This document shows positions 4,679-58,584 of a DNA stretch of 64,000 nucleotides, piece after piece. The position numbers were made by a program, and so were the translations under genes. Numbering within the stretch: the stretch's first letter is position 1; each line of letters starts with the position of its first letter. Origin of the DNA: a virus; IMG/VR virus record IMGVR_UViG_3300028534_000004, positions 1-64,000 of that record. One strand, written 5' to 3'. The notes below the pieces were generated by a model, which was not told where the DNA came from, searched no databases, and saw only the letters and a list, made by a program, of their open reading frames with translations.

Positions 4679-4687
4679 ATAATACCA

Positions 4688-4701
4688 ACATAAGAACTAA
4701 T
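4688..4701 (+). promoter_or_regulatory. phage promoter-like box, copy 4 (aCATAAGAACTAAT)
   Basis: Differs from the other copies at one base. Sits directly after the terminator at 4645-4678 and 39 nt upstream of the ATG at 4741. Confidence 0.45.
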
Positions 4702-18363: not shown

Positions 18364-18364
18364 A

Positions 18365-18378
18365 CATAAACCTTTAAA
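18365..18378 (+). promoter_or_regulatory. conserved leader motif CATAAACCTTTAAA, copy 1
   Basis: Identical 14-mer also at 24642-24655. Here it lies 10 nt upstream of the ATG at 18389. Confidence 0.35.
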
Positions 18379-18388
18379 TTTTTACATT

Positions 18389-18904
18389 ATGAACAACACA
18401 CAGAGAGTGACAAAATTACTCGCAATTTTGAAAACTAAAAGAGCAGAAGTTAAAAAGCTCAAAGAGATGAAGTATCATACTCCCGGTAACTTTATGCTCA
18501 ATTGGAAAGGTAATGTCTACAGTGTTGATTTCCGCAATGCAGACATGGTTACAATGAAGACTTCTATTGTACCTTTGTTACTGGAAATCAAGAACACTAA
18601 CAATTTTCTAGAAGATTCTTCTTTGAAAACAATGAAAATCGGCGATTTTACAGTAGATGAAGTTCTTGAAGATTGCAAAGTTTTCATCTTGAAGACTGAA
18701 CTTCCTAAGAAAGAAGCAGAACTCAAAGAACTCGAAGCAAAGATTCTTGCATTGTCACCTGATGAATTGAAAGTTGACTACATGCTTGACGAACTCGAAG
18801 ACGAGTTAAGTGACGAATTAATAAGAGCTGACTTCACGGAAATAGTAAAGGAAGTAGCCAACATGATGAGTCCTTCAAACGACGAAACTGAAGAAGAAGA
18901 ATAA
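18389..18904 (+). CDS. acidic hypothetical protein
   Basis: 171-aa ORF with a strongly acidic C-terminal third (…DELEDELSDEL…NDETEEEE). Bracketed by the leader motif and a strong terminator. Confidence 0.65.
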   Translation: MNNTQRVTKLLAILKTKRAEVKKLKEMKYHTPGNFMLNWKGNVYSVDFRNADMVTMKTSIVPLLLEIKNTNNFLEDSSLKTMKIGDFTVDEVLEDCKVFILKTELPKKEAELKELEAKILALSPDELKVDYMLDELEDELSDELIRADFTEIVKEVANMMSPSNDETEEEE

Positions 18905-34356: not shown

Positions 34357-34653
34357 ATGAAACTTACATTTATGGAAAAAAAAGATGTTGAAAATCTAAA
34401 AGAACAATTGAAAATCTTCTTTAAATCTGAGGGAATAAAACCTTATATATTGGTTAAAAAGAATGAAATCAATGTTTATTTCTACAGTAAAGAGATTAAG
34501 GTTGAAAGTTATAAATTACTTATTACTTTTGCTTGTTACGGTATCTTTGTAGCTAATAATTTAAAGCCAAAGACAATACAAATAGTACCTACAAAGTTAA
34601 AAGCTGATAAGAAAAGAACTGACCATTATGTGCTAAAAGCTGTAATACAATAA
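34357..34653 (+). CDS. hypothetical protein
   Basis: ATG at 34357, after the terminator; the track ORF start at 34291 would run through the terminator hairpin. Confidence 0.5.
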   Translation: MKLTFMEKKDVENLKEQLKIFFKSEGIKPYILVKKNEINVYFYSKEIKVESYKLLITFACYGIFVANNLKPKTIQIVPTKLKADKKRTDHYVLKAVIQ

Positions 34654-34681
34654 AAGAGGGGAAGCGGCTTCCCCTTTTTTT
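34652..34681. terminator. bidirectional terminator at the convergence of rightward and leftward gene blocks
   Basis: AAAAGA-GGGGAAGC-G-GCTTCCCC-TTTTTTT. It sits between the stop at 34653 (+) and the stop at 34680 (-). Confidence 0.75.
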
Positions 34682-42548: not shown

Positions 42549-42550
42549 AA

Positions 42551-45500
42551 TTAACAATTTAAATCGTTTAGTTCATCTATATTAAAATACTCGTCAAAGT
42601 TAAAATTATTTTCGATTATATCCGAAAGAGGTTCGCGATGTTTATCAGTTAATTTCTTATATAAACTGTTTGCTTTTGTAGCATAAGCCATATCGCCCAT
42701 AATTTTTTTATTTGTTTCGATATAACTAGGATTAATAGTTTCATAGGCATGGATTACATCTATAATTTGCTCAATAGCAGTAAATTTATTTGTTAGGTCT
42801 ATATTTTCTTTAATAGCAACTTCAACATTATTGTATTCTTTACCATTATAAACGAACCCTTTTTCCGGTGATACTTTATCTTTCTTTATAGGCTCTACTT
42901 CAGCTTCGGGTTTATTAATAACTTTTAACTTCATCATATCTTTAATGAAGTCTGTTTTAGGGAATAAACCCTTAATCATTGCATCTTTTGCAGCTTCAGC
43001 AGAATCGTATAAATTAGATTTAATTAGACGTCCTGATTCATAATGAATAGCTCTATAATGACCTGTTTTATCTTTAAAGATTAAGAAATGAGCGTCTAGT
43101 GTAGGATGCTTAATTATTTCACCTTCTATAGTCTCTATTGTATTTAAGTTTCTAATAAGTTTCGCGGTTACTTTTTTGTTTGAAACATTATTAGATATAG
43201 CTGTTTTAGGAGTAGGATTCTCTATAGGACTATTCTCCTCGAAGATATAATCCTGTCTATAAGAAGGTAATGTATTATCTATAAATACTAAAGCTCTTTT
43301 GGCACTTTCTCTTAATAAGGTACCTTCTTTAAATATTCCTAAACTTTCTAACAAATCCATTATTATATCTTTAAACTTAGACAATAGATTTTGTTTTTCA
43401 TTATAAGGTATACTGGCTAATTTCTCTTGAAACAGAGGACGCGTGAATATACCGGTAATAAACTCTTCAATAGTTGCTAAATGGTAGTATGCCTTTTCTT
43501 TTTGATTGAAAGTTATTCCTTCTTCTTTATTAGATAGTCTCTTGTACTTTTCTTTCATAGATTTATAAGCAGGGTCATCTTTAAAAGCTTCAACAGCTTT
43601 GTTATATACTTCGTATAAATCTTTAGCATACTTAGGAGCTCCTTGTTTTATTTGAGTTTTACCTATTTCTTCATCATAATAGAAATAATCGCTTAAGTAC
43701 TCTACACTTACAGCATGAAGGTACTCATGTAAAAATACTCTAGCTTGGTCTTTATCATCCAGACTAAGAAAAGTATCTGTAAGAGCTATTTTTCCTTCTG
43801 AGTAAACTGCAACAAAATCATTGGATTTTACTTTATAAACAGGAATATCGAGTTTAATTCTATCGGTTAAAGCTTCTAGAATATCGCTTATTCTATATTC
43901 TTGAATGTTTTTACGAATATAATGAAGAGCTACTTCATCTGCTGTTTTACCATTTTTCTTTGAAGTAGGCTCAGATTTAGGAGGTTCTACTTTTTCTTTA
44001 TTTTCTTCTTGTAAATAATCCTTTATTTTCTTCATTACTTCTCTATCAGCGTCATATTGTTTGATAGCCCAATGAGATAATACAGGTATTTCTTTTCCTT
44101 TGTAGAATAATCTGAATTTGGAATCTGTTTTAGAATCGTACATTGAAGCATAAGGAATATTGGAACCTTCCCATAATTGTTTAGCTTCAGAAGCGTCTTT
44201 AACTCTTGTAGCTTTTTCCGGATTATTCTGAAAGAATTGAGTTACAAATGGTATTCCTTCTGTTTCTCTTTCACTATTGAACAATACGTCGTTTAATTGA
44301 TTACTAAAATTAAGATTTGACAGATTAACACTAGTCATTTTAAACCAACTAAGAGGTATATATTTGACAATTTCTACGGCTCCTTGTACAGCATTATTCA
44401 ATAAAGAATAAGTTATTAAATCATTTGCCAAATCTCTAGTAGTATAAAAAGGTTCTATTTTATATTCGTAAACTGTTTCAAATCCGGTATCCTTTAAAGT
44501 AGGATACTTTTTAGTTAGAGTATTTTTATTATGTTTTGCTACAAAACGTGCTTTGTATTTTTTTCTTCCATAACTAAATTTTACAATTTTTTCGTTACCA
44601 AAAGCATCTATAGGATTTTTAGATAGTATAGTAGTTTTACCTTCTATTAACTCTTTTTCAAATTCTTCTGAAGAAATCTCTTTATAAGAAGAATTATTGT
44701 AGTTATAAGAAGGTAATTCTAAATTAGCTTCGATTAACTCATCTAAAGCTGTATATAGAACATCTTCATATAGTAAGCTATTGTTAGCGTTAATAAATTT
44801 AATTAAACTAGGTGTTCCGTCTCTGTTAATATCAAAAGTTAATCTTGACAAAAGTGGGTTATCAAAAATTTGATGTTTTTGAATTTTTAATTCGTAAAGG
44901 TACCTGGCTAAAGACATATTAGTATCTGTATCAATATCTAATTTAGCTCTTTGAACAGCTACATCTCCTTTGGTTAATCCTATTTTGGAAGAAGAATATA
45001 TGAACCGTTTCAGTTCTTTTAGAATATCTTTTTTTAATTGTTTCCCTTGAGCACTAGTACTAGTATCCGTATAACTACTTATTTCTTCATATAACATGTT
45101 AAATTCTTGTTGATACTGTATAAAGAACTCGCTAAACAACGACTCATTCAATCCTAAAGATTTTCCTATCATATAAGCTACAGGATTAGCAACACGCGAA
45201 TAATGTTCTAATCCAAAAGCTTCCAGATTAACATCTTCGAATTTTGTAAAGTTAGTGAATAAGTTATCAAATCCTTTGCCTGATACATTATCTAGAGTGT
45301 TACTTAAATCGATTATATCTTCCATAGAACCTTTAAACTTATTATTTATACCAAATAACTTAGTCAAAGGCCTAACTTCTTCATCAGCTATCCCTTTTAA
45401 GAAATTAAAAGCTCTCAATATTCTAGCTTGAAATAATCTGTCTTTAGATGTTCCTATATTGTCATATAAATCTTTTACTGAAAAAGTAAAAGCATTAGAA

Positions 45501-48500
45501 TTATCATTTAAAGCTTGATATTCTTCAGGTGAAAGATTTAAGTTCTTCATAGCATTAGAATAAGCTATTGCATGTTTATCGCCGTATTCAGTATTAGTAT
45601 TAGAATCAAGGTTCATCATCTCTTCTACATACTTCTTAATTATAGGCTGTGACAAAAAGAAATAAGGAATAGAAATGATTTCATTTCCTACTAAGGCTTG
45701 GTCATAACCCAATAGCGCCATTAAAGAATCTACAGAGATAGTGTATTTATTTACATTAACACGACCTAATATTTGAACCTTCATATCATCGGTACCGGTA
45801 TTAACTCTTTCATCTAATACCTCAGCAATAGTCCTATTACCATCTAAAGTTCTTTGATTACCTATTTTACCATTAGATACTATTCTTACTCTACCTCCTT
45901 CAAAGTCTTCACCTAGAAATACAATAGGTTTTTCTTTTAACTCCTTAATAGTTATCTTGTTAGCCTGCTGTGTTAAAGACAAGAAAGTTACTGCTTGAGC
46001 GTATACTCCAATAGCCATTTTACCAGAGCTACCTCTCTGCATAGTGTCCCTTTGATAATCTATATCCGCGAAGCCTAAATAAGTTTTAGAGCTGTCTTTA
46101 TTTAACTTCTCTAATAAACTTGCTTGTTCTTTAGCAAATTCAATTGATAGTACTTTATTTATTTTATCCTGTACCTCGTTATCGGGAGAAGATAATACCG
46201 AATGATGTACTTTGATTATTTCATTATCTATAGTTTTACTATATAAATCTTTTGCTTCTTCTAGTTTCTCCTCTATTTCTTTTACTTTATCTTTTTCTTT
46301 TTTCTTTTTGTATTTAACTCTTTGTTTTTCTAAACTTTTAATTTTATCTTCTAATTTCTCTAAATTCTCTCCTTTACCTACTTTTTTAATTCTCCCTTCT
46401 TCATCTAACTCGTGCCAATAGAAATAAGCAAATTCTTTATCTACGTCAAAGTCTAATCCTTTCTGAGGCAATATTGTATTAGGAACAACTATTATATCTC
46501 CCTGTATCTCAGGTATAAAACCTGCTATCTCTACATCAGACATAGATACGTGTGATGAAGTAGGAATACGGAAAGTTATCATACTAAGAAGTTCATCGTC
46601 TATCATTCCTTCTATTAGAACTTTTCTACCGTTTTCATACTCCCAATATTTACCTTTATTTTTTTCACCAAAAATATCTACTAAATTACCTTCTTTATCT
46701 TTAAACCTTGAAGGTACAAATACTTGAACCTTCTTAAGTTTATTTCCTTCTTTATGAGTTACCTGTAATCCTTTTTCTTTGTCATAATATTTAGTGTAGA
46801 TAATATCATCGCGATAATTTTCTTCATTAGTTAAACTCCAACCTTCGGCTGTACTAGCTACATAAGAATAACCCGGCATCTTTAATTTTATAATGGCATT
46901 ACGTATTAAAGAAATAGCAACACTTTCTAATTTTTCTGCCTGAGGTAATAACCATAAAGGAACGTCGAATATAGGTTTACCATTTACAATTTTAATTTTT
47001 AATTGTTCAAGGTCTTTGGTATACATTCCTCTACTTTCTGCTTCTTCGATAAGCAAAGATTTTAACTTATAAGCTAATTGTTTATGGTCAGATAAATTCT
47101 TTAGTCCTAATTTGTCTAATAACAACTTCTCATTTAAATCAATGCGTTTAGCAAATAAAGTGTTGTAATATATAGCAAGAGCTTCGCCGGTAACTTTATT
47201 ACCGTTATATTCAAATTCTTTGTTAATCATATCGTTACCAAACAATTCTTTCATCATTTGGGTACCGAGAGTAACCATATTAGGTTTATGTTTACCTGCT
47301 TTATAAGGTATTTCTTGTTGTATCTTGAAGTATTCTCTATTAAGCTCTATACTATGATTAGCTAAATGAGTACTAGTTAGATTTTTAATTCTTCCGTCAG
47401 GAGTAAATATCTTGAGAGCTTTCTTTAAAGCTCCTACTTTATTAGCTGTCTGGAAAGAAGCTCTAACAGTTCTGTGACTACCTTTTTCTATTTCGCTTTC
47501 TTCAAGTTCTTCCATTGCTCTACGTAACTTATCTATCTCTTTACCCGCTGTTACTTGAGGTATCAGTGGTATAGAAGAAGATTTGATATAAATCACATGA
47601 TTAGTATCGTTGTCTTCGTCTAACATAGAACCACCGTATACCGGTTTAAGAGGTTGTAATACTACGTCTAAATCATCTTTAGTTAACAAATATTCATCCG
47701 GTATAGGCTTATTTTGTTTTTCAAATTGTCTTTGTTTCTTTATTTTTCCTTTTATATCCGTGTACTGTTTCTCTGTCAACTTACCATATCTATACAATAC
47801 ATTAATATGTTCTGATAAAGTAGTGAACTCTTGAGCATCAGTACTTTCTATTTCTAAGAAATCACTAATAACATTATACCTTTTTAAATTCTTTAGTATT
47901 TTATCCTTTTGAGATTTAAGCTCTGTAATTTCTTCTTCTGATAATACTTCAGTATTTAACTCTACATTAGATAAATGAGTATCTATAATTTTTAGATTTT
48001 CTATTTCTTTAGCAGCTTTTCTTGCCTCCTTAACTCCATAGTGTAATTCTATTAAGTACTCCAAGTTAGCAGCATTGGTTTCTGCATCTTGTAGCATTAT
48101 CTGTAAGTATTTTTCTTTGTTGGACTCATACGCTTTTAAACCGGGAGCAATTAACATTGCCATACGCTTAGAAGCATTTACATTAATATTATTAAACAAA
48201 TCATCGTATATATCAGGGTTTTTAACTCTATATGGTATAGGTTCATTATTCTTATCTACTTCAAAGTTTTTTGAATCAACATCTTTATCTTTACCATAAT
48301 AAGCCAAATCTCCGGCAAATATTTGATTAATGTTTGTTAAACCCACAAATGTATTAATTACGTAATCGGCAGTAGCTACATAAGCCAATTCTCTTTCGTC
48401 ATTTATATCTAACTCCTTAAGAAAATTCTGGTCCATATAATTAATCTTAAATTCTCCGTCTTCATTTATATTGAAGAAACCATTTTGAACAAATTCAGAG

Positions 48501-51500
48501 AATTTATCATTTATCTTATTTACAAATAGTCTTTCTATTTCTGCTAGAATATCACTAATATGGTTCCTTTCGAAATCTTCTATATTATCATATTGTAACA
48601 TTAACTCTTGGAAACTTTGTCCTCCTTTACGAAACTTATTTAGTCCCGGTAAAATAGTAAATAGTTTAGAAAAGGTATCATAGCCTTTAATTCCTGTTTC
48701 TACTTCAGATTTTATATTCTTATGGATACGTTTAATTTCAGGTCTTACTGTTTGATAATAGAGTGCTGTTAACAGAGATTTGTTTATTTTATCGATGTTA
48801 CCTTCTCTGAATTCAAAATGATTATATGTAATTTTAAAACCTACATTATCTAATATTAACTGCTGAGTTTTATCAGAGAAAGTAGGAAACATGGTTCTTA
48901 TATGTCTTAGTTCTACTCCATGATATATTCCTGTCATAGTTCTGGCACTTTTTAAATCTTGTAAAAGTACCATTGCTATTAAGTCATAATCAGTAGGAGA
49001 TTGGTCCGTAATTTTATTACTACCTCTGGTTTTCTTCCCTAGTTCTTTCAAAGCATCTAATGCGATATGAGATAATGCAAATCCTTCTTTAAATTTATCA
49101 TCTTCTTGAAGTTTTCTTAAAATTAGATTTTCAGATGTTAAACTAAGGTTTAACAGCTTTTGTCTATAATCTTCATCGTTCTTAATCTTATAAGCCATAT
49201 CGCTAGTATAATTAGGTAAATTGATAAGGTAAATATTCTTTTTACCGTCATTAATACTAGTAGAGCTAACCTGATTAGAATACTTAGATTCTATAGCTGC
49301 TAGCTTTAATCCATAAGTACTCATAATTGCACTTAATAGAGGTAAACTCTCAGCAGATTTACCCTTTTTATAACTCTCTATATTATCTTCTAAATTGTAC
49401 AACAAAGAAATAATTTTTCCTAAAGGTGAAATATTTCCATTGGGATTTAATAAACCTTTTAGTTTAATGAACTTCACTTTATTATTATAGAAAATTTTTA
49501 AGCCTTTGTCATTAAGTTCTTCTAATGTATCCGTAGATAAATGTACTCCTATATTTTCGAAAGCAGCTTTAACTTTCTGAATACTAATTTCTCCCTTTAC
49601 ATTGGTTTGCCCTGTATAAGTAATATTACCTTTATCGTCCTTAGTTATAACTATTCTAAATTTCTTAGTAGAATTACGTAAAGTAACAGAAGCTTTAGAA
49701 CCGGGTTTTAGTTTATCAATTATATCTTTAAATGGTTTTAATTTATCTCCGTATAATTTACCTCCTTTTCCGCGAGCCATAATCAACATCTCTTTGTACA
49801 GAGAAACATCTACTTCTACATTACCGTAGTCCTCAGGAGGTAACATATCCTCGAATTGTTTAATAGCTTCTTTAAGTTTATCTTCGTTAATGTAGAATTT
49901 ACCTTCTGTGTATCTAAATAAATCAGATAATAAAAAGCTCTGGTCCCAGTCATTTAAAATACGACGCTTGACACTATTACTATTAGTATCAAATAACATT
50001 AAGTTGTAGGTATTTCTTTTAAAATCTTTACCAAACATAGGACTCTTCATATTAATAAAATGTTTGGCAAAGTTTACTACGAATTGAATCTTAGTCTGTT
50101 CATCAGTGTTGTCTAATCTTTTTACCAATTCTTCCACCCAAGGATGGGCTGCTTTTGCAGAAAGTAATCTGGCTTTCATTTCTTCATAAGTAGGAGCTAC
50201 ATCGCCATAAGCTAAAATAATCTCAGCTACTTTATCATATATATAATCGAAGTCATGGAATAAAGGAAGTTCAAAAGCTCCTTTTACCTGCTGACCTGTT
50301 TTATCCAATTGTTTTAGACCTGAAAAGAAACGGCGTAACTTATAAGGTAAACGTTCTTTACCGTTTTCTTCTAATACACTCTTGCCTAGTTCTTTAGTTC
50401 TACCTTCAATATCTTCTTGGTCTAAAGAATCCTCATCATTTCTACGTTCATCATCTGTTAAATCTTCAGATATTTCAAGAATTGTAGCATTTTCATCAAT
50501 TTTCTTCTCTACGATACCTGTACGTAATTTAACTTCTTTATAAGCTAACTTAGCTATCTTATTTTTGTTTTTAATAATAGTCTCAAGTTTAGCTAGTTCT
50601 TGTTGTTTAACTTTAACAAGGGTTAATATTTTCTCTTTTTGAGTTGTAGTTAAATTATCCTTATGTCTTTTAAGTACGGAAATAGAATTATTAATCGTAT
50701 TATTTATCGACTCTATAGACGGTTCTAATAGTTTTTCAAAATCATCAGTTAATTTAGACATTATATCTTTCTTAGATATATATTGTCCTTTGTCAAATTC
50801 TCTTAAGAATGAGTTATACATATAAGTAACTACAGTATGTAACTCTATAGTTGTTAAGCCTTCTATCTCGTTGTAACTTTGTCTAATCTTCTCAAATTCA
50901 TCTTCATCAATAAATCTAGGTTCTCTGAAGGAAATTTCATTTTTGTTATCTTCTATTTCATTCAAAATATTTTCTAAGTCTTCGTCTATATCATCGGATA
51001 ATTTTACTTCTGTTACACTAGTTTCTATAGAATTAGCTTGTTCTAAAATATTTAGTAGCTCTTCGTCATCTTCTACAGGAGTAGTATCATTAGTGGTATC
51101 GGTATTAGCACTAATATCTTTTAGTTCATCCTTAGCTTTTTTATTTTCGTACTCCGTATTAATTTCTTCTTCTGACTTTACTTCTTCCTTTTTCTTTAAT
51201 TTAGAAGTTAAATTAGAAGTTTTATCTTTTATCTTTTTACCTAAAGGTATTTTATCAAAACGTTTATCGAGATTATCTTGGTCAGTGCTATTAAATTCAA
51301 TTCGCGGTTGAGTTCTGGTTATATACTTAGGACTATTCTTAGTACCAATATTAAACGATTTAATATTAGTAAAGAAGTTGTTCTTTAGTATATCTTGTAA
51401 CGTGTATTTATCATTTACACTATAACCTCCGGTAGCATCAATAAATGAAAACTTCTTATTACTATATTCTTGTAATGCTCTTGCATTAGTAGTAACACGT

Positions 51501-54500
51501 AAAGAAGTTCCGTACTTATTAAAGAACCTGTCTACGGAGCTCATTATATGATTATCTTTAGTTCTTTTATTTAGAACAATTATTTCTTCTGACTGAGAAG
51601 AAGCTAAAACTACATTACCTCCTAATATTACTATGATAGGTAAATCTTTATTATATCCCTCACCTCTTCTCATAGATTGTTTAATATTACCTACTACCTC
51701 TTTTACCCTAGCATTAAAATCTACTCCTTCACCTATAGTCTCTATATAAGCATGAGTAAGAGAACGGATATAATTTATAAGCCCGGTAGTTACACTAATA
51801 TCTCCTACATAGGGCATAAGTTGTTTTATAATCTCACTATGGATATTATTCTTATTAGTAAGATATATCTTGATAGCGTTTTGTACAGAATCTATAATTC
51901 CGGTATCCATAAGTACATTAGGCCTGATTACTTTAAACAGGCGATATAATTTGTACTCTTTTCCATTTTTGTATTCGTACCCTATAAAGCGTAATTCAAC
52001 GTTAGAGCCATTAGGAATACTCTTGCCTGATGTATTTTGAATTACAATTCTATCATCTTCGAACGTAGTTATATTATCTGTCAAGGTATATTTTTTACCA
52101 TTCAGTAAAATATCACCGTTTATATAATAACTAACTTGTGTATGAGGAGCATACTCAGATAAGGCACCTAACATGTCTTCATCTACAGAGTATACAGAAC
52201 TACCTCCTACGTTTGTTATCTTAATAATATGGTCTTGATTCTTATTTAATTTATCAAGAGTATACTTTCTAAATAAATAAGTCTTTTTACGCATATTATT
52301 AATTAGCGTTCTTGTTTCTTCGGGATTACCTTCATGTCCTATGTTCTTAGGGTTATACCATGAAGTAGAATGGATAAAGAATATTTGTTCTCCTGTATCA
52401 GGGTCTACTGCTACAAGAGGTATATTATTGATATAATCTTCATCTGAAGGTCTTAATCTATTTTTACCAACATATTCTCCGAATGTCATTATTTGTTTGG
52501 TGCCATCATCGTTATAGACACTTATCATTACATTCTCATAGTCCTCGGCAATCTTCACTTTAAATTCTCTACCGGGTTTCATGTAATCATAATCTACACA
52601 CTTTTCAGAATCTATATCAGTATTATCTATAATCTGTCCATTTCTATCTATAAATTGAAATGCTGCTTTCATAGATTCTGTTACTGTTTTAATACCTTCT
52701 ACTTTTCGCTCATCAGGTTCTGTTACAGGAGAAGTGTCTATATCTTCTTGATTTTCTTCAATAACTTTAGCTTCTTCTTCGCCACTATAAAGAGCACTTA
52801 ATTCTGAAATTTTACTTTGTGTTTCTTTAAACGGGTCAAAAACAGAATTATATATTTTATAATAATCTTCTTTAGGCATACCGTTACCTTCCCATCCTAT
52901 TACATACAAAGGAAAGTTTTTATCAATTTGTTCTACATCATTAATTTCTTTTACCTTATTAAGGTAATCTTCAAATGTAGGTTTTCTTCCTAGTTCTTTT
53001 TCTAAAAACTGAATTTCTTTACCTATTAGATTAATTAATAAGGCTTTGTCCTCTTCTGTCAATTCCCTTTCTAAACTTTTGGGTTCAAATACCAAACCAT
53101 CTCCTAAAGCATCTTCATCTATTACTTCATCTACAACATCGTCTTTTTTATCTAAATCTTTGACTTCCGTATCTGATGCTGCTTCTTCTGTAGTTTCAGG
53201 TTGAACTCTCTTTCCTAACTCTTTTATTGCTTCCTGAGTTTTAGTTAGTTCTTCCTTAGTTTCATCTTTTGATTCCTCTTTAACAGGTTCCTTTTTATTT
53301 ATTTTATTCCTGGCAGCTTCGGCTTTTTCTTTAGCCTCTTTTAATTTTTCTAAATGTTCATCTTTTATCTTAAGAGCTTCTAGGATGCTATCTGTTTTCT
53401 TTAATCTATTTTGTAAAGCAATGTTGTCTTCTTTTAATTCATTAAGAATTCTTATTTGTTCTTTGTAATAGGCGATTTTCTTACGATATTTTTTCTTATT
53501 TACTTTTGATAGATGTTCTTTTTTATTCTGTAAAAGACGTATGTTCTTTTGTAGTTTTGTTTTAGACTCTTTTAATTTTTCTTCTAATTGTTTCTTAGTA
53601 TAGTTTTCCGATTCAACTAAAAACTCTTTAGTATTAAGAATAGCATCTACAGCTTGAAATAAATGTAAACTTTCTCGTTCTATCTCATGATAAGATTTAG
53701 CAGGATTAACAAAAAAGGAATTGGTCTTTATAACGGTTTTCGATGTTCCTTCTTTAACAACTTGTTCTTTTGTAGGTTCTTTATCTTGACCTTTCTGTTC
53801 TACTAAATCAGGTTCGTCTTTATTGAGGTCCTTATTGTTTTTCATTCCCTCAACAATATCATCTATTACTTTTTCTTGATGTCTAGGGTCTACCCATTTG
53901 TTATACAGACGATTACTTTCGTCTTTATTAAATTCAAGATTATATTTATCAAAATGATTTTTAATTAAGGAAAGTTTTGCATCATTATCATAGTCTACCT
54001 TCTTTTTTAAGTTGTTGTAAACTTCATTTAAATTCTCATTTTTACTTACTTCATCAAAAGTAGTTTCTAACTCTTTCCTTTTTTCCTTGAAGTACTTTAA
54101 CTTTTTAACTTTACCTTTAAGCTCATCTATGTTTAACTCTTTGGTAGTAGTTTTTGAAAGTTGTTCAAAATCTTCTTCGTCTAATAATTTATTTATCTGT
54201 TTATTAGTTTCTTTTTCGTTTACTTTTGAATTTTTATTTATAGAAGTTTTTAACTCTGATTTAAGTTTATCTATCATTACATCCAGAGCTGCTGCTTTAG
54301 AATGTAAACGTAATAGTTCTAATTCCTCGGGATTAGTAGTAAATTGAGTATATTGTTCTTCTATAACGTTACCAAGTTCTTCATCTTGTTTACCATATTC
54401 CTTTCTTAAGAAATCATAGTAAACAACATTAGTAAGACTATTTTTATCTACTTTATCTCTATGTGTTTCGTAACTTTCACTTAACTTATCCAAGTCCTTT

Positions 54501-56026
54501 AAATAAGTATTAAACTCATCTAAGGCTGCTTTAGCTTCGGTATCACTTCTAATATTAAGGTCTTCGTAAATATCTTTATCTTTGTTTTGAAGGCCGTTAA
54601 TTATAGTAGTCACCATTTCTTTATAGCTCTCGAAGCTCTGAACTTGATTATCAGACATCTCTTGTAAGTGTAATCCGTTAACAGCAGTAAGGATATTTAA
54701 TTGACGTCTATAAGTTTTAGCAGATTGAGTATCTCCTCTTTCTTGAGCTTGTCTTATTTCGTCTATGAGAACAGTTCTTGTAGCGTTTATTTTATTTTTA
54801 AAAGTACTGTATTTATCATCAAAATATTTTTTATTTCTAATCTCAGTAGGCTTTCTTAATAATGAAGAGCTAGCGTCCATTAATAAACCTCCCATTGCAC
54901 CAGCTGCAAAAGCATTCCAGTTATCTGCATTAGTTAACTCTCCGGATAAGAAATTACCGCGAGAATCTTTAAGAACTAATCCGCTACTGGTTTCAGCGTC
55001 TAACATTGAGAAATTCTGAAATACATTTTGGGCAAATTCTTCAGTACCTTCGGATAATATTTGTATTCCTCCTTTAGCAGCCATTCTACCGACTTTACTT
55101 CCCATGCTGGAGATAAATTTCTCTACAATTCCTTCTGTGCTCCCTGCTACAGGATTAACAAACATAGCTCTTGTAGCTGCTATATCCAACGGTAATAATG
55201 CCATATTTAAACCAAAAGTTTGACTAGCTGCTCTAGAAGCTATAGCAGAGGCTTCTTCTTTGCTATATCCATTATCTAAAAATGCTTGATAAACTTGGTC
55301 ATAACTTTGTTTACTTTCTTGAATACTCTCTTTATATCTTTGATAAGAACCTACAACAGTCGCATAATTTTTAATTTTTTTACTTTTACTTGCAGTCTTA
55401 GCAAATTCAAATAAGTTTTTTGATTTCTTACCAATGTTAGCTATTTCTTCAATACCTCCTGTGCCACCTGTTAAAGCTGCAAGTAAAGCTGTTTCAGCAA
55501 CAGTTTCTAACATCATTCCCAAACTGGTACCTGAACTAGCAAACCAATTAAACCAAGCTGCTGGGTCTGAAGGGTCAAATTTACCAGGATTCCTTTCATA
55601 TATCTCAGCTTGATGAGACAATATTTCATCTGATAATCTTGTAAAGCCGTTATCCATAGAGCCTTTTACTATACCCGCGGCTTTTAGTCCACTAGATAAA
55701 TCTAATGTTGCACCTGCACTAGACACAAAAGCTCCTGCTGTTTGTAAAGCAAAATTCCAAAGAGAAGCACCTGCTCTTTCCCAGTTACTCTGGTTATAAG
55801 CATATTGGGCTACTATATCTTTGTCGGGGATAAACTGATTTACTCTACCGAGATAATACATATCTTTAGAAAAAGAATGTACAGGTCTGTAAATCCCTAT
55901 ATTAATTTTTTCTTTTCTAGCTTGACCGGTTAATGGATTAACTAAGTCAGCATTTATGTATGTAACTTTTTTAGTGTTACTAGGCTTTTTATCACCTGGT
56001 CCAGGTAAATTAATTTTATATGGCAT
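42551..56026 (-). CDS. giant virion protein (4,491 aa) with RNAP-like DFDVD motif and C-terminal HExxH motif
   Basis: 13.5-kb ORF uninterrupted in the standard code. Gly/Ala-rich hydrophobic N-terminal 400 aa, then Lys/Glu coiled-coil tracts. PQKGLDFDVDKEF lies at aa 3192-3196 and VFLHEYLHAV at aa 4100-4104. Confidence 0.85.
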   Translation of the reverse strand: MPYKINLPGPGDKKPSNTKKVTYINADLVNPLTGQARKEKINIGIYRPVHSFSKDMYYLGRVNQFIPDKDIVAQYAYNQSNWERAGASLWNFALQTAGAFVSSAGATLDLSSGLKAAGIVKGSMDNGFTRLSDEILSHQAEIYERNPGKFDPSDPAAWFNWFASSGTSLGMMLETVAETALLAALTGGTGGIEEIANIGKKSKNLFEFAKTASKSKKIKNYATVVGSYQRYKESIQESKQSYDQVYQAFLDNGYSKEEASAIASRAASQTFGLNMALLPLDIAATRAMFVNPVAGSTEGIVEKFISSMGSKVGRMAAKGGIQILSEGTEEFAQNVFQNFSMLDAETSSGLVLKDSRGNFLSGELTNADNWNAFAAGAMGGLLMDASSSLLRKPTEIRNKKYFDDKYSTFKNKINATRTVLIDEIRQAQERGDTQSAKTYRRQLNILTAVNGLHLQEMSDNQVQSFESYKEMVTTIINGLQNKDKDIYEDLNIRSDTEAKAALDEFNTYLKDLDKLSESYETHRDKVDKNSLTNVVYYDFLRKEYGKQDEELGNVIEEQYTQFTTNPEELELLRLHSKAAALDVMIDKLKSELKTSINKNSKVNEKETNKQINKLLDEEDFEQLSKTTTKELNIDELKGKVKKLKYFKEKRKELETTFDEVSKNENLNEVYNNLKKKVDYDNDAKLSLIKNHFDKYNLEFNKDESNRLYNKWVDPRHQEKVIDDIVEGMKNNKDLNKDEPDLVEQKGQDKEPTKEQVVKEGTSKTVIKTNSFFVNPAKSYHEIERESLHLFQAVDAILNTKEFLVESENYTKKQLEEKLKESKTKLQKNIRLLQNKKEHLSKVNKKKYRKKIAYYKEQIRILNELKEDNIALQNRLKKTDSILEALKIKDEHLEKLKEAKEKAEAARNKINKKEPVKEESKDETKEELTKTQEAIKELGKRVQPETTEEAASDTEVKDLDKKDDVVDEVIDEDALGDGLVFEPKSLERELTEEDKALLINLIGKEIQFLEKELGRKPTFEDYLNKVKEINDVEQIDKNFPLYVIGWEGNGMPKEDYYKIYNSVFDPFKETQSKISELSALYSGEEEAKVIEENQEDIDTSPVTEPDERKVEGIKTVTESMKAAFQFIDRNGQIIDNTDIDSEKCVDYDYMKPGREFKVKIAEDYENVMISVYNDDGTKQIMTFGEYVGKNRLRPSDEDYINNIPLVAVDPDTGEQIFFIHSTSWYNPKNIGHEGNPEETRTLINNMRKKTYLFRKYTLDKLNKNQDHIIKITNVGGSSVYSVDEDMLGALSEYAPHTQVSYYINGDILLNGKKYTLTDNITTFEDDRIVIQNTSGKSIPNGSNVELRFIGYEYKNGKEYKLYRLFKVIRPNVLMDTGIIDSVQNAIKIYLTNKNNIHSEIIKQLMPYVGDISVTTGLINYIRSLTHAYIETIGEGVDFNARVKEVVGNIKQSMRRGEGYNKDLPIIVILGGNVVLASSQSEEIIVLNKRTKDNHIMSSVDRFFNKYGTSLRVTTNARALQEYSNKKFSFIDATGGYSVNDKYTLQDILKNNFFTNIKSFNIGTKNSPKYITRTQPRIEFNSTDQDNLDKRFDKIPLGKKIKDKTSNLTSKLKKKEEVKSEEEINTEYENKKAKDELKDISANTDTTNDTTPVEDDEELLNILEQANSIETSVTEVKLSDDIDEDLENILNEIEDNKNEISFREPRFIDEDEFEKIRQSYNEIEGLTTIELHTVVTYMYNSFLREFDKGQYISKKDIMSKLTDDFEKLLEPSIESINNTINNSISVLKRHKDNLTTTQKEKILTLVKVKQQELAKLETIIKNKNKIAKLAYKEVKLRTGIVEKKIDENATILEISEDLTDDERRNDEDSLDQEDIEGRTKELGKSVLEENGKERLPYKLRRFFSGLKQLDKTGQQVKGAFELPLFHDFDYIYDKVAEIILAYGDVAPTYEEMKARLLSAKAAHPWVEELVKRLDNTDEQTKIQFVVNFAKHFINMKSPMFGKDFKRNTYNLMLFDTNSNSVKRRILNDWDQSFLLSDLFRYTEGKFYINEDKLKEAIKQFEDMLPPEDYGNVEVDVSLYKEMLIMARGKGGKLYGDKLKPFKDIIDKLKPGSKASVTLRNSTKKFRIVITKDDKGNITYTGQTNVKGEISIQKVKAAFENIGVHLSTDTLEELNDKGLKIFYNNKVKFIKLKGLLNPNGNISPLGKIISLLYNLEDNIESYKKGKSAESLPLLSAIMSTYGLKLAAIESKYSNQVSSTSINDGKKNIYLINLPNYTSDMAYKIKNDEDYRQKLLNLSLTSENLILRKLQEDDKFKEGFALSHIALDALKELGKKTRGSNKITDQSPTDYDLIAMVLLQDLKSARTMTGIYHGVELRHIRTMFPTFSDKTQQLILDNVGFKITYNHFEFREGNIDKINKSLLTALYYQTVRPEIKRIHKNIKSEVETGIKGYDTFSKLFTILPGLNKFRKGGQSFQELMLQYDNIEDFERNHISDILAEIERLFVNKINDKFSEFVQNGFFNINEDGEFKINYMDQNFLKELDINDERELAYVATADYVINTFVGLTNINQIFAGDLAYYGKDKDVDSKNFEVDKNNEPIPYRVKNPDIYDDLFNNINVNASKRMAMLIAPGLKAYESNKEKYLQIMLQDAETNAANLEYLIELHYGVKEARKAAKEIENLKIIDTHLSNVELNTEVLSEEEITELKSQKDKILKNLKRYNVISDFLEIESTDAQEFTTLSEHINVLYRYGKLTEKQYTDIKGKIKKQRQFEKQNKPIPDEYLLTKDDLDVVLQPLKPVYGGSMLDEDNDTNHVIYIKSSSIPLIPQVTAGKEIDKLRRAMEELEESEIEKGSHRTVRASFQTANKVGALKKALKIFTPDGRIKNLTSTHLANHSIELNREYFKIQQEIPYKAGKHKPNMVTLGTQMMKELFGNDMINKEFEYNGNKVTGEALAIYYNTLFAKRIDLNEKLLLDKLGLKNLSDHKQLAYKLKSLLIEEAESRGMYTKDLEQLKIKIVNGKPIFDVPLWLLPQAEKLESVAISLIRNAIIKLKMPGYSYVASTAEGWSLTNEENYRDDIIYTKYYDKEKGLQVTHKEGNKLKKVQVFVPSRFKDKEGNLVDIFGEKNKGKYWEYENGRKVLIEGMIDDELLSMITFRIPTSSHVSMSDVEIAGFIPEIQGDIIVVPNTILPQKGLDFDVDKEFAYFYWHELDEEGRIKKVGKGENLEKLEDKIKSLEKQRVKYKKKKEKDKVKEIEEKLEEAKDLYSKTIDNEIIKVHHSVLSSPDNEVQDKINKVLSIEFAKEQASLLEKLNKDSSKTYLGFADIDYQRDTMQRGSSGKMAIGVYAQAVTFLSLTQQANKITIKELKEKPIVFLGEDFEGGRVRIVSNGKIGNQRTLDGNRTIAEVLDERVNTGTDDMKVQILGRVNVNKYTISVDSLMALLGYDQALVGNEIISIPYFFLSQPIIKKYVEEMMNLDSNTNTEYGDKHAIAYSNAMKNLNLSPEEYQALNDNSNAFTFSVKDLYDNIGTSKDRLFQARILRAFNFLKGIADEEVRPLTKLFGINNKFKGSMEDIIDLSNTLDNVSGKGFDNLFTNFTKFEDVNLEAFGLEHYSRVANPVAYMIGKSLGLNESLFSEFFIQYQQEFNMLYEEISSYTDTSTSAQGKQLKKDILKELKRFIYSSSKIGLTKGDVAVQRAKLDIDTDTNMSLARYLYELKIQKHQIFDNPLLSRLTFDINRDGTPSLIKFINANNSLLYEDVLYTALDELIEANLELPSYNYNNSSYKEISSEEFEKELIEGKTTILSKNPIDAFGNEKIVKFSYGRKKYKARFVAKHNKNTLTKKYPTLKDTGFETVYEYKIEPFYTTRDLANDLITYSLLNNAVQGAVEIVKYIPLSWFKMTSVNLSNLNFSNQLNDVLFNSERETEGIPFVTQFFQNNPEKATRVKDASEAKQLWEGSNIPYASMYDSKTDSKFRLFYKGKEIPVLSHWAIKQYDADREVMKKIKDYLQEENKEKVEPPKSEPTSKKNGKTADEVALHYIRKNIQEYRISDILEALTDRIKLDIPVYKVKSNDFVAVYSEGKIALTDTFLSLDDKDQARVFLHEYLHAVSVEYLSDYFYYDEEIGKTQIKQGAPKYAKDLYEVYNKAVEAFKDDPAYKSMKEKYKRLSNKEEGITFNQKEKAYYHLATIEEFITGIFTRPLFQEKLASIPYNEKQNLLSKFKDIIMDLLESLGIFKEGTLLRESAKRALVFIDNTLPSYRQDYIFEENSPIENPTPKTAISNNVSNKKVTAKLIRNLNTIETIEGEIIKHPTLDAHFLIFKDKTGHYRAIHYESGRLIKSNLYDSAEAAKDAMIKGLFPKTDFIKDMMKLKVINKPEAEVEPIKKDKVSPEKGFVYNGKEYNNVEVAIKENIDLTNKFTAIEQIIDVIHAYETINPSYIETNKKIMGDMAYATKANSLYKKLTDKHREPLSDIIENNFNFDEYFNIDELNDLNC
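43715..43729 (-). other. HExxH zinc-metallopeptidase-like motif (HEYLH)
   Basis: RVFLHEYLHAVSVEY at aa 4100-4104, in a hydrophobic-helix context typical of zincins. No third ligand was identified. Confidence 0.4.
46439..46453 (-). other. DFDVD motif (candidate catalytic Asp triad of a two-barrel, crAss-like/YonO/QDE-1-type RNA polymerase)
   Basis: The minus strand encodes G-L-D-F-D-V-D-K-E, similar to the NADFDGD / DFDID type. A bare DxDxD pattern is expected by chance about once in a protein of this size, so the call is weak without profile evidence. Confidence 0.4.
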
Positions 56027-56041: not shown

Positions 56042-58582
56042 TTATCTAGTTGAAGTTCTTTGTCCTACACTATAAGAAGAAGATTGACGTTGTTTAACTT
56101 TATTACCGCTTCTCATATACCAAGGAATTACAGATTGTTTTACAGGAGGTATAGTTTCGCTTAAATCAATATCCTCTCCGTATTGTAACTTAGCTAAATC
56201 CATAGCTAATAGTCCTACAGTAGGATATAATCCGTATGTAGAAGTTTGATTATTTTCATCAGTCATTGTTACAGGAACATAACCATCTTCTGTTTTAGCA
56301 TAGATAGCTGCACTATATTTGGTTCCGGTAACTGTAGGAACAGGTACAATATCTACTTTTATATCATACCCTTGAGCATTCATTCTATAAGTTGTTGTAC
56401 TAAGAGGAGATTCTGAGTTAGCAGTAACATCATTATTCATAAGGTCTATAATTGATGTTTCTATATGATAAGCAGCTTTGGGTAATCCTCCAACAAAAGC
56501 ATTAGCGGTAAAAGCATCTGATTGAGTATAAGTACGAGCATTTTCACTTAGATAAGCACCTAAGCGTTTTCCGTTTTCAGATTCATCAGGAGCTACAAAT
56601 GATATTACTCCGGGTTCACCTTCTTGAGTTTTTAATTTAACTCCGGCTTCTCTTAGTGCTTTAGTATCAAATTGAACCCAATATCTTGTACCTGATTTAC
56701 CGGGAGTTGCTTTAATATCAGTTATAAAACTTTCAATAGGTTTTCCTGTCATTTGTTCTATTTCTTTGAATCGAACAGATTTTTTAGTTACAAACCTATT
56801 TAAACCTTTAGTATTTTTACCACCTGTAGTATAGTCGCCTTCCGATTCTGCAAACAAATTATCATTAGTGTAAATATTAGAATCATCAAACAAAGTAGTT
56901 CTCAATAAATTCACTCCTGTCGGGTCAGTAGTCAAAGGTTGAGTGACATCTAGAGCATTATAAGAGAATGCGTTCTTGTCCGAATTAGTAGAGTACCAAT
57001 CATTCTTAAAGGTTTTCTTATCATCGTCTAATTTGGAATATTGTTTTAAACTACCATTACTCTTCATTTGATACAAAGTCTGTATCATACTTTCGGAATA
57101 ACCTTTCTTTTCCATTCTTTTTTTGAATTTATCATAAGATACAAACGGGTCTGAACCACCTACAGTAAGAGTATAAGCTTGATAACTACTATTTGCATCT
57201 TCTATAGCTTTGTCTAATGTTACTCCTTGCTCTCTTAATTTTTCATTTAATAGATTATAGAATTCAACATTTTGTTTTGACCAACCTTTCTTTAATAATT
57301 GTTGGTCTGAGTAATTATCAGAACTTTGTTCGAAGTTAGTTAAACGTTGAAGTTTATCATTGTAACCTACTAATTGAGCTTCTAATTCTTTTATCTGTAC
57401 CTGTTTAGCAACAGCTTCTTGAGAATTAGGGTCCAACTTATCAAGTTCACTTTGCAAAGTAGCAATCTCTTTAGTTGTAGTTTTTACATTAGTATTTATC
57501 TCTGAAATCTGTTTAGCAACAGTCTCATGATTGAATTCTTTTGGGTCAAGTACTTGTACTGTTTGAGTAGTGCCGAATATGACTTTACTTATACCCATTT
57601 CCATTTCTTTAAGTTGACGCTGATGTTCATATCTAGAATCTTCCAAAGCAAACTTGTCAGCAGTAACTCCTGTTATTCCGCTTTCTTTTTTAACAAAGCC
57701 GTATTTCTTAGCAGCAAAAGTAGCAGCACTATTTATTGTAGAAACAAAGTACTTAGTAAACGGGTCAGCATTTTCTAATCCGGGAATGTTACTAGCCATC
57801 TGGTCAATCTGTGATTCATTAAGATAACCAAGCTTAGTATCTACTATAAATCTCTGTTGATAATAATCTCTAACTTTAGAGTTATTAGCTAAAGAATTCA
57901 TCATCGCGTCATACACTTCTTTTTCATCAACAGCTTCCCAACCAGACTGAGATTTAACCCAGTAGTTACCTTGTTTATCTACTCTATAAGTTTTACCGGC
58001 ATCTGATTGCCACCCTTTACCCAGTTCATTAACATATTGAGTTAAGTCAGTATACTCAGCAGGAGCCATACCTGAGAAACCTTTATATTTACCGCTTTCC
58101 TTATCGTAATTAGTTCCTTCCCAAGTTACATAAGCATATTGTTTTAATTTCTGAATATCTTGAGGTCTAAATTTATCAGGATTCTTTTTGCTCAATTCAT
58201 CAATATCTTTTGACCATTGTTGATAAGCATTAAAATTTCCTTGAATAGCAGCCCATTCTCCCTCTGTAGATTCATAGTAGATGTCTTTACCTAGCTTTTG
58301 AATCTTAGGCATCATTTGACGCCATTCCAGGACATTTTCATTTAAATTATTAGTAACATCATCTATGTTACCTTTAAATCCGCTAAATATTTCTTTTAAT
58401 CTGGATTCATCTTCTGAACCCAAACCTTGTCCTCTTAGACTTTTTAAATAGTTATCTAAGCTCTGCTGTTCAGCAGTAATCATTCTATCTTGAAACTGAA
58501 CAGTCTTAATCATTAATTCTTCGGGTAACTTAAAAGAATAATCGATTAGCTTAGGACTAGAAGTTTTATAAAATCTTCCCAT
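56042..58582 (-). CDS. virion-associated hypothetical protein (846 aa)
   Basis: Long ORF in the leftward late block, 15 nt upstream of the giant ORF. No motif recognised. Confidence 0.75.
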   Translation of the reverse strand: MGRFYKTSSPKLIDYSFKLPEELMIKTVQFQDRMITAEQQSLDNYLKSLRGQGLGSEDESRLKEIFSGFKGNIDDVTNNLNENVLEWRQMMPKIQKLGKDIYYESTEGEWAAIQGNFNAYQQWSKDIDELSKKNPDKFRPQDIQKLKQYAYVTWEGTNYDKESGKYKGFSGMAPAEYTDLTQYVNELGKGWQSDAGKTYRVDKQGNYWVKSQSGWEAVDEKEVYDAMMNSLANNSKVRDYYQQRFIVDTKLGYLNESQIDQMASNIPGLENADPFTKYFVSTINSAATFAAKKYGFVKKESGITGVTADKFALEDSRYEHQRQLKEMEMGISKVIFGTTQTVQVLDPKEFNHETVAKQISEINTNVKTTTKEIATLQSELDKLDPNSQEAVAKQVQIKELEAQLVGYNDKLQRLTNFEQSSDNYSDQQLLKKGWSKQNVEFYNLLNEKLREQGVTLDKAIEDANSSYQAYTLTVGGSDPFVSYDKFKKRMEKKGYSESMIQTLYQMKSNGSLKQYSKLDDDKKTFKNDWYSTNSDKNAFSYNALDVTQPLTTDPTGVNLLRTTLFDDSNIYTNDNLFAESEGDYTTGGKNTKGLNRFVTKKSVRFKEIEQMTGKPIESFITDIKATPGKSGTRYWVQFDTKALREAGVKLKTQEGEPGVISFVAPDESENGKRLGAYLSENARTYTQSDAFTANAFVGGLPKAAYHIETSIIDLMNNDVTANSESPLSTTTYRMNAQGYDIKVDIVPVPTVTGTKYSAAIYAKTEDGYVPVTMTDENNQTSTYGLYPTVGLLAMDLAKLQYGEDIDLSETIPPVKQSVIPWYMRSGNKVKQRQSSSYSVGQRTSTR

Positions 58583-58584
58583 GA

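Follow-up and report, generated by a model that had tools for sequence, protein, structure and literature searches.

Among the closest described relatives of the gene treated here are the virion RNA polymerases (RNAPs) of crAss-like phages. In Cellulophaga phage phi14:2, gp66 (Protein Data Bank (PDB) entry 6VR4) makes rifampicin-resistant early transcripts; the gp66 preprint places its catalytic site at 1361-DFDID-1365, where every single alanine substitution abolished RNA synthesis. As the gp66 paper reports, gp65, gp66 and gp67 are all virion proteins, of which gp65 has a zincin-like domain, and in some phages they are fused into one polyprotein that is likely cleaved. The phi14:2 and crAss001 homologues have been detected in virions by mass spectrometry; in crAss001 these are Gp47, Gp49 and Gp50, which have been assigned to the capsid cargo zone. 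Here we describe a stretch of 64,000 nucleotides of viral DNA (IMG/VR record IMGVR_UViG_3300028534_000004, positions 1 to 64,000), called the window below, and in it an open reading frame (ORF) of 13.5 kb whose product we refer to as the giant:

42551..56026, minus strand: whole ORF of the giant, 4,491 codons and residues, ATG start, stop codon at 42551-42553

We computed homology, fold, conservation of catalytic residues, gene context and domain order for the giant. Taken together, these lead us to a reading to which we give a probability of about 0.88 as a whole: the giant is a virion-packaged, ejected early-transcription enzyme that combines roughly two and a third phi14:2 genes in one chain; its residues ~1765-4050 are a complete gp66-type single-chain, two-barrel, DNA-dependent RNAP body; and the phage is a crAss-like phage of ~86 kb, distantly related to the Flavobacterium phages of the genus Fipvunavirus.

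An earlier note on this DNA had described the uninterrupted 4,491-codon frame, starting with ATG on the minus strand, and had estimated that it fills about a third of the window together with the adjacent 2,625-codon ORF (34680-42557). Both statements are borne out, the two ORFs amounting to 33%. An open frame of 13.5 kb is not a chance occurrence in DNA of 30% G+C, and the gene is real. An assembly artefact is likewise unlikely, because an identical giant is found on two independently assembled metagenomic contigs of ~86.4 kb (Logan SRR8439170 and ENA ERZ27262685) and, with 100% identity, as P0046 in a public protein library. When a 24-kb part of the window was compared with the GenBank phages by megablast, none of them matched.

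The case for a polymerase starts from ILPQKGLDFDVDKEF, which the earlier note had pointed out and which is indeed present, with DFDVD at residues 3192-3196 (context PQKGLDFDVDKEF). The bare motif has no weight alone, because DxDxD is expected ~1.5 times in a chain of this kind and is found six times, at residues 678, 1679, 2580, 2803, 3192 and 3697; the caveat in the note that chance matches are to be expected was justified, its count of two was too low. What sets the site at 3192 apart is its homology. By BLASTP, residues 2715-3200 match phi14:2 gp66 948-1369 (E 1e-17), with GLDFDVDK placed over GSDFDIDK, so that the fourth motif residue is Val in the giant and Ile in gp66. A profile built from the core together with its closest homologues matches 6VR4 with E 8.9e-75 (chain residues 619-1805), and a hidden Markov model (HMM) from full-length relatives covers gp66 116-2160, nearly the whole gp66 body, as a single domain with E 1.3e-111. 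The family profile was needed for this: single-sequence phmmer of the whole giant against PDB sequences returned noise alone (tryparedoxin, E 0.2). Around the motif, tblastn matches Fipvunavirus phages of Flavobacterium psychrophilum at ~35-38% identity. It also matches genes with the annotation RNA polymerase or RNAP catalytic subunit; these belong to crAss001, crAss002, IAS virus, p-crAssphage and many 'cr' phages, and their E values go down to 6e-13. The DFDVD core is also carried by crAss001 Gp50, which the core HMM matches with E 1e-46.

Among 83 sequences aligned to the core model, D3192 and D3194 are each present in 73/73, D3196 in 70/70, R3153 and P3155 each in 74/74, K2794 in 78/80, K2863 in 74/81 and D2730 in 78/81. 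All three aspartates at 3192 are also kept in 35/35 fused relatives, while the other five DxDxD sites vary. These results bear on the idea that DFDVD arose by chance and that the giant is a fibre, a tape-measure-like protein or some other generic structural protein of giant size. The surplus of DxDxD motifs would fit such an origin; the profile and fold matches to 6VR4 and the exactly aligned, invariant motif refute it, and we rejected this candidate as practically without prospect.

The remaining elements of a gp66-type polymerase follow in order along the chain:

47927..50734, minus strand: gp66-like N-terminal domains, residues ~1765-2700 (HMM of residues 1700-2300 against gp66 126-575, E 1.7e-14)
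47336..47884, minus strand: first double-psi beta-barrel region, residues ~2715-2897 (BLASTP against gp66 948-1095 and residue mapping)
46862..47335, minus strand: equivalent of the connector domain, residues 2898-3055, mapped from gp66 1095-1238 (gp66 boundaries from the preprint)
46337..46861, minus strand: second double-psi beta-barrel region, residues ~3056-3230, which holds FRIPTSS (R3153, P3155)
46439..46453, minus strand: catalytic metal-binding motif DFDVD, residues 3192-3196, mapped from gp66 1361-1365 and aligned to D1361/D1363/D1365
45974..46066, minus strand: equivalent of the bridge helix, residues 3321-3351, aligned to and mapped from gp66 1529-1559
45716..45832, minus strand: equivalent of the trigger loop, residues 3399-3437, aligned to and mapped from gp66 1598-1636, inside the 6VR4-matching part of the model

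Residue mapping further takes gp66 K1012, the lysine of QPLK, to K2794, and gp66 R1322, the arginine of FRIP, to R3153. The first-barrel region contains the motifs TDAQ (2729-2732), QPLKPVY (with K2794) and NKVG (with K2863), and its beta strands are modelled with high confidence; the second-barrel region is the conservation maximum of the whole giant. In the bridge helix, a G-K-x-x-x-G core is conserved (G3335 in 64/69, K3336 in 59/70 and G3340 in 63/70). The segment that blocks the cleft in gp66 (196-233) aligns to an acidic segment at residues ~1836-1893 of the giant, in a low-confidence part of the alignment.

The fold agrees with this assignment. An AlphaFold2 (AF2) model of residues 2650-3750, made from a 45-sequence alignment, has a mean predicted local distance difference test (pLDDT) score of 82 and a predicted template-modelling (pTM) score of 0.82. 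Foldseek matches this model to 6VR4 with E 2e-25, probability 1.00 and a template-modelling score of 0.62 over 1,176 columns. 6VR4 is the sole significant fold match in the PDB, and the weak tail consists entirely of largest subunits, those of Pol I, Pol II and bacterial RNAP (beta-prime). The comparison with crAss-like virion RNAP structures, which the earlier note had named as a check, has thus been passed, and the proposed two-barrel virion RNAP of the crAss-like gp66 kind is borne out by profile, HMM, fold and conservation of the aspartates. Less direct is the kinship with QDE-1 and YonO that the note had also suggested: neither is among the top 50 Foldseek matches or matched by sequence in the PDB, and the relation to them is at superfamily level only, through gp66. 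As to a T7-type polymerase domain of the N4 kind, Pfam gave no RNA_pol match, and the catalytic region has the two-barrel fold. Sequence and model together support the view that the giant is a gp66-type virion RNAP fused to other cargo modules.

A protein with such a fold could still be an inert structural or ejectosome component, in which an RNAP-derived domain serves as capsid cargo, channel or scaffold while host RNAP transcribes the early genes. In GenBank the Fipvunavirus orthologue is labelled just 'virion structural protein', with no mention of a polymerase, roughly half of the chain is not RNAP, and at its C-terminus is a domain similar to parts of T7-gp16-type ejection proteins. However, the Asp triad, R3153, P3155 and K2794 are fully or nearly fully conserved in highly diverged homologues, as expected under purifying selection on catalysis, and the homologous gp66 is an active enzyme, which makes an inert role very improbable.

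The gene context is that of the gp66 family. The following features surround the giant:

60325..64000, minus strand: crAss muzzle-protein gene, a 1,200-residue ORF cut by the end of the window (1,474 residues on the contig; Pfam crAss_MUZ)
56042..60321, minus strand: two Cys-free genes of 846 and 578 residues, upstream of the giant and in the position of the crAss001 cargo proteins C1 and C2
34680..42548, minus strand: downstream partner gene, 2,622 residues from ATG, 2,625 from an upstream TTG
34652..34680, no strand assigned: bidirectional terminator-like hairpin, the convergence point of the virion block and the replication block

By the gene calls on the contig, the order in the block is ring, muzzle, 578-residue gene, 846-residue gene, giant and 2,622-residue gene, the gene preceding the muzzle gene having a CrAss_Ring_1 match in Pfam. 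This is the order of crAss001 (muzzle, cargo 1, cargo 2, RNAP-associated proteins) and of phi14:2 (g071...g067, g066, g065). Five block genes of the window are pairwise homologous to Fpv20 gp30-gp34, the 846- and 578-residue genes being syntenic with gp32 and gp31. With Ring_1 and MUZ genes upstream and synteny with phi14:2, Fpv20 and crAss001, the giant thus sits in the cargo block, and, like gp66, beside a convergent replication module, here on the plus strand with DNA polymerase, helicases and primase. The earlier note had put the giant at the end of the late block beside a strand-switch terminator; the terminator is there, while the giant is the penultimate gene, and the 2,625-residue gene intervenes. 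As a side observation on the replication block, its last large gene (32297-33196, plus strand; L004 32831-33476) has the Pfam domains RNA_ligase and T4_Rnl2_C and is thus an Rnl2-type RNA ligase.

The crAss-like label of the phage is supported by the muzzle and ring matches. NCBI lineages place its nearest cultured relatives, the Fipvunavirus phages, outside Crassvirales, and Fpv3 has been described as grouping apart from the five gut clades. In these relatives (FpV4, Fpv1-3 and Fpv20) the counterpart of the giant is gp33, with 4,419 residues, which is collinear with residues ~1005 to ~4270 of the giant, has ~34% identity in the core and shares the five-gene synteny gp30-gp34. Its first ~950 residues, by contrast, do not match the N-terminus of the giant.

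The part of the chain in front of the polymerase, which gp66 lacks, amounts to ~1,750 residues and falls into three sections:

54347..55849, minus strand: N-module, an all-helical, Gly/Ala-rich leader, residues ~60-560, with conserved sequence to ~770
53027..54229, minus strand: Lys/Glu-rich helical linker, residues ~600-1000, with up to 32-33% Lys plus Glu and low occupancy and identity among fused relatives
51077..53026, minus strand: middle conserved block, residues ~1001-1650, from the conservation map, lineage-specific

The fusion of extra N- and C-terminal modules to the polymerase, which the earlier note had proposed, is borne out by the N-module and by the zincin-like block discussed below. 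Its description of a Gly/Ala-rich, hydrophobic N-terminus was half right: the first ~450 residues are Gly/Ala-rich (17-23%), and no 19-residue stretch of the N-terminus has transmembrane-like hydropathy (maximum Kyte-Doolittle mean 1.28). The AF2 model of the N-module is helical, with pLDDT 85-95 over residues 70-550. In the PDB this fold has no match, the best (E 0.7) being helical-bundle noise that includes transporter membrane domains; as these fold matches are noise only, we did not assign a membrane-insertion function.

A word-indexed homologue search gave 6 matches for the core and none for the N-module, and we used an exhaustive HMMER (phmmer) search instead, which found 118 proteins with the N-module at their N-terminus. 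Among them are 36 cluster representatives of 3,800-5,818 residues, with an RNAP core in 36/36 and an exact DFDxD in 34; all N-module relatives of at least 3,000 residues (36/36) also carry the core. Another 26 of the 118 are stand-alone proteins of 1,000-2,400 residues, without the core and with the N-module at the N-terminus. The nearly invariant residues of the module are E233, A267, P292, E326, E329, E330, Q333, G376 and G379 (alignment A3). Its matches in BFVD are N-termini of phage cargo proteins, including a crAss 'RNAP associated protein fused to zincin protease' and a Cellulophaga phi4:1 structural protein, and, more weakly, 'polyvalent' proteins with ADP-ribosyltransferase (ART) or RelA/SpoT payloads. 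crAss001 Gp47, which ends in ...RCNS, matches the N-module weakly (domain E 4e-4). By these sequence relations the N-module is probably equivalent to the N-terminal part of phi14:2 g067 and of crAss001 Gp47, and it may act as a generic leader for delivered cargo.

Fpv20 gp33 (L001) is, with its 4,419 residues, near the size of the giant, and its residues 1-950 are unlike the N-module of the 36 other giants; its leader part appears to have been exchanged. The middle block, in turn, is common to the fused giants and Fpv20 gp33: its HMM matches Fpv20 gp33 alone (E 4e-78), and residues 950-1650 have no match to gp66 or g067. A small domain at residues ~973-1114 (~52685-53110, minus strand) recurs as stand-alone proteins of ~220 residues (P0115, P0128, P0142 and P0151) and is also present in Fpv20 gp33 1206-1300. 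Pfam scans of the stand-alone relatives gave no family for it, and it has no CxxC; a tryparedoxin match with E 0.2 is noise.

Behind the polymerase, the giant continues into a part that belongs to a different gene in phi14:2:

43037..43969, minus strand: zincin-like domain of the SprT/minigluzincin type, residues ~4020-4330, with HEYLH at 4100-4104 and E4188-F4189 downstream

An HMM of residues 3950-4491 matches phi14:2 gp65 127-490 with E 1.7e-15. In the HExxH motif, H4100 is conserved in 26/35, E4101 in 34/35 and H4104 in 34/35; H, E, H, Y, E and F, the last two being the downstream pair E4188 and F4189, are invariant in an alignment that includes gp65. The profile of the block also matches the phage internal virion protein 9SFN_G (E 2e-7), projannalysin (9e-4), the PhiM1 ejection protein gp48 (8VB2) and Spartan, and Pfam reports SprT-like in 7/13 members, the window sequence itself being below the gathering score. 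With HExxH, a Glu ligand and this homology, residues ~4020-4330 qualify as a predicted zincin metallopeptidase. The HExxH...E signature is shared with gp65, with SprT/minigluzincins and with T7-gp16-type ejection proteins such as PhiM1 gp48 (8VB2) and 9SFN_G; protease activity is only predicted in all these phage proteins, and in the giant the domain is on the RNAP polypeptide, instead of on a third protein (g065 in phi14:2).

The neighbour holds the remainder. The 2,622-residue partner protein has no HExxH, and its domains are NADAR (310-439), ART-PolyVal (553-731), a gp65/Fpv-gp34-like C-terminal part (1385-2576) and a hydrophobic segment (2423-2446); the C-terminal part is the counterpart of Fpv gp34 and of the remaining portion of gp65. 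Because the zincin domain is on the giant and the rest of gp65 on the neighbour, the gene boundary is shifted relative to phi14:2, and the giant comprises a g066-like part, the zincin part of g065 and, probably, a g067-like part. crAss001 differs again, in that the three proteins are separate and Gp47 is on the strand opposite Gp50/Gp49, while the window phage joins two and part of the third; the muzzle and cargo genes are upstream in both. As an observation on the partner itself, its N-terminal extension of ~1,300 residues, which is absent from Fpv gp34 (1,596 residues), carries NADAR and the ART-PolyVal ADP-ribosyltransferase, two domains that look like a pair of ejected effectors for taking over the host or countering its defences. 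Comparable domains occur on polymerases too: some gp66-family RNAPs (P0007, P0016, P0026, P0044, P0042, P0043 and P0011) carry extra Pfam domains, namely a PIF1/UvrD-type helicase, NADAR, ART-PolyVal or an intein (Hom_end_hint); ejected payload domains seem often to travel on the polymerase. In the triple fusions P0055 (5,818 residues) and P0081 (5,797 residues), N-module, RNAP and gp65-like tail form one chain.

A protease domain in cis makes it conceivable that the giant is a polyprotein precursor, cut by its own zincin-like domain or in capsid maturation into a g067-like leader, an RNAP of ~2,300 residues and a small protease fragment, so that the mature virion would hold separate proteins as in phi14:2. 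This would refine the reading of the giant as an ejected virion polymerase rather than contradict it. Fused polyproteins are 'likely cleaved' in the proposal of the gp66 authors themselves, who also consider a possible activation of the RNAP by the zincin domain; the conserved HExxH...E domain is in place, and poorly conserved linkers of low occupancy at residues 700-1000, 1600-1700 and 3800-3900 could hold cleavage sites. On the other hand, no cleavage site is known, and the fusion is stable in 36 diverged cluster representatives and extended in the triple fusions of ~5,800 residues, which suggests that the single chain is tolerated or useful. We regard cleavage as possible but less likely than not, and a further argument comes from the cysteines at the gene junctions.

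The giant has two cysteines only, C1143 and its very last residue:

42554..42556, minus strand: codon of Cys4491, the last residue of the giant, which ends in ...DLNC

Immediately downstream, the partner gene begins with MKC (42540-42548), and this Cys3 is its single cysteine. The four cargo-block proteins (34680-60321, minus strand) contain 3 Cys in 8,540 residues, compared with 0-16 Cys per 1,000 residues in the replication-block ORFs of the window and 7.5 in the muzzle protein; in crAss001, the cargo proteins have 0-1.2 Cys per 1,000 residues and the enzymes 17-20. gp66 is likewise nearly Cys-free, with a cysteine at its C-terminal end. When we inspected the junctions between consecutive cargo proteins in eight related lineages (phi14:2, crAss001, Fpv20, the window, L007, L008, L009 and L010), 13/13 had a Cys within the last 1-9 residues upstream and a Cys at position 3-5 downstream; as the lineages are related, the 13 junctions are not 13 independent events. 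The termini are as follows:

phi14:2: g067 ...NTIC / g066 MAC...QECK / g065 MSC...
Window: giant ...DLNC / next gene MKC...
Fpv20: gp33 ...KNCN / gp34 MAC...
crAss001: Gp47 ...RCNS; Gp50 MSKRC...ICGANTLYEL; Gp49 MAKKC...
L007: ...KECN / MGC...KCPE / MAIC... (4 Cys in 6,344 residues)
L008: ...NNNC / MKC...KCN / MAC...KTKC / MSC...
L009: ...DDEVC / MQYC...QCKKG / MKAC...
L010: ...NNCY / MKC...

The outer ends of each chain, that is, the first N-terminus and the last C-terminus, are without Cys. In the last six residues of the fused giants a Cys is found in 33/36, compared with 0.04 expected, and terminal Cys occur in 1-3% of ordinary ORFs in the same genomes. The triple fusions, whose tails match the 2,622-residue protein of the window (E ~1e-50), are without junction Cys, P0081 having no Cys at all in 5,797 residues; in L008, where the third protein is split, a new Cys pair is present at the new junction. 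The loss of junction cysteines on fusion fits a peptide bond that replaces a link better than a need for separation, and in this respect speaks against cleavage of the giant. In L008, a 104-kb crAss-like contig, an inserted GIY-YIG homing-endonuclease gene (17819-18496) also separates the RNAP gene from the cargo gene that follows.

At the nucleotide level the junctions have no conserved motif, spacing or frame; translational coupling, a frameshift site or a similar nucleotide signal was rejected, since the spacing (1-29 nt), the frame offset (0/1/2) and the codon (TGT/TGC) all vary. A lipobox was rejected by inspection, the N-terminal Cys being at position 3-5 without a signal peptide. The crAss001 virion has been reported to contain structural disulfides, which makes an oxidised state of the virion plausible. 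The sequence pattern would be consistent with giant cargo proteins of crAss-like phages that are strung head-to-tail by their terminal cysteines, through disulfide or metal bridges, into one thread for ordered ejection, with fusion substituting a peptide bond. We put this forward tentatively, as a model whose chances fall somewhat short of even; in the papers searched, we did not find the junction-cysteine pattern described.

At the other end of the window lies a set of promoter-like boxes, which the earlier note had taken for a private regulon of the polymerase. The boxes themselves exist: five copies of CCATAAGAACTAAT with at most one mismatch are on the plus strand between 2369 and 5775, at 2369, 2856, 4045, 4688 and 5762, and with up to two mismatches the window contains 7, compared with 1.35 expected. 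This confirmation concerns the boxes, not their tie to the polymerase. Every copy follows a hairpin and a T-run and is followed by a loosely conserved TAA(T/A)G, and two copies are ~40 nt upstream of start codons (4741 and 5813); they look like terminator-promoter units. According to the gp66 preprint, the early transcripts that gp66 makes in phi14:2 share no upstream motif, and promoters of the host sigma type serve the middle and late genes; the argument from the boxes is thus weaker than stated in the earlier note. The region 1900-4700 is GC-richer (36-39%), largely non-coding with short ORFs only, and contains repeated box units; in this it is reminiscent of the early intergenic regions that are transcribed at high levels in phi14:2.

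A region of this kind also fits an active enzyme with a different main role, that is, replication priming, or the synthesis of non-coding or small RNAs on single-stranded templates as by QDE-1. gp66 prefers single-stranded or denatured DNA in vitro, and in phi14:2 it is long intergenic regions that give rise to the earliest and most abundant transcripts (gp66 preprint). Yet the rifampicin-resistant early class of phi14:2 includes protein-coding early genes, and the phage in the window encodes its own primase and helicases; we consider such a role improbable.

Two other giant polymerases invite comparison. The virion RNAP of N4 and other Schitoviridae (~3,500 residues) is also a giant ejected polymerase with a flanked central catalytic region, and it transcribes early genes. 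Its N- and C-terminal flanking regions are needed for ejection and encapsidation. Its catalytic fold, however, is unrelated, being that of T7-like single-subunit RNAPs, and it has no sequence or fold match to the giant, so that the comparison is one of analogy only. The virion RNAP of Thermus phage P23-45 (5,002 residues) resembles the giant in that a single huge polypeptide joins a two-barrel RNAP to a module for virion delivery or structure; it belongs to another lineage, with the RNAP at the N-terminus and a siphovirus tape measure as the fusion partner. gp66 itself, with 2,180 residues, is less than half as long as the giant, and its activity and packaging are known experimentally, in contrast to the giant, which is known from its sequence.

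Several points weigh against the reading of the giant as an ejected early-transcription enzyme. The case for its role is made by computation, that is, from sequence, predicted structure and gene context. The identity with gp66 is just ~20% over aligned columns, and Pfam, applied to the whole giant and five sub-fragments, gave no family above threshold. The two barrels and the ~140-residue connector were assessed as a whole, by the global match to 6VR4, the barrels not being delineated singly in the model, and bridge helix and trigger loop were assigned from alignment and the global fold match. The link between the N-module and phi14:2 g067 is transitive, through intermediates with E ~1e-10 on each side: a collinear filter-off HMM alignment of the two gives a domain E of 0.01, g067 is not matched by an HMM made solely from the fused giants, and BLASTP of the giant against g067 is not significant. 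Fpv20 gp33, of the closest cultured relatives, is without the N-module. Finally, an intact and a cleaved chain would both be compatible with the sequence.

Considering the homologues, we propose that the giant would be present in the virion and ejected from it, and that the timing of its action, its template preference and any cleavage would resemble theirs; the conserved catalytic residues suggest Mg-dependent, DNA-templated, rifampicin-resistant RNA synthesis. In the resulting scheme, the giant would be made late and packed into the cargo zone of the capsid, probably in a self-inhibited state. Led by its N-terminus, it would then be threaded through the tail, either before the DNA or along with it, refold in the cytoplasm and transcribe the early genes independently of host RNAP. 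Its catalytic centre would be formed by DFDVD at 3192-3196, K2794, K2863, R3153, the bridge helix at 3321-3351 and the trigger loop at 3399-3437, and a role of the zincin domain may be to process the polyprotein or to activate the polymerase.

The family, the giant size and the principle of fusion are already published, and the giant is a well-resolved addition with a particular arrangement of boundaries. A 13.5-kb unannotated metagenomic ORF and the 'virion structural protein' genes of Fipvunavirus can now be named as fused virion RNA polymerases, with catalytic residues, bridge helix, trigger loop and an attached zincin domain mapped on the giant. The polymerase itself is of low novelty; what merits further study is the rule of the junction cysteines and the shift of the zincin boundary. 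The boundaries of the three proteins of the 'transcription block' are fluid, as they are separate in phi14:2, joined to two and a third in one gene here and united in ~5,800 residues elsewhere, and this fluidity helps to define the parts that must travel together. If the covalent linkage of cargo proteins is true, it would address how ~5 MDa of cargo is ordered and threaded through the tail, a question raised by the crAss001 virion structure.

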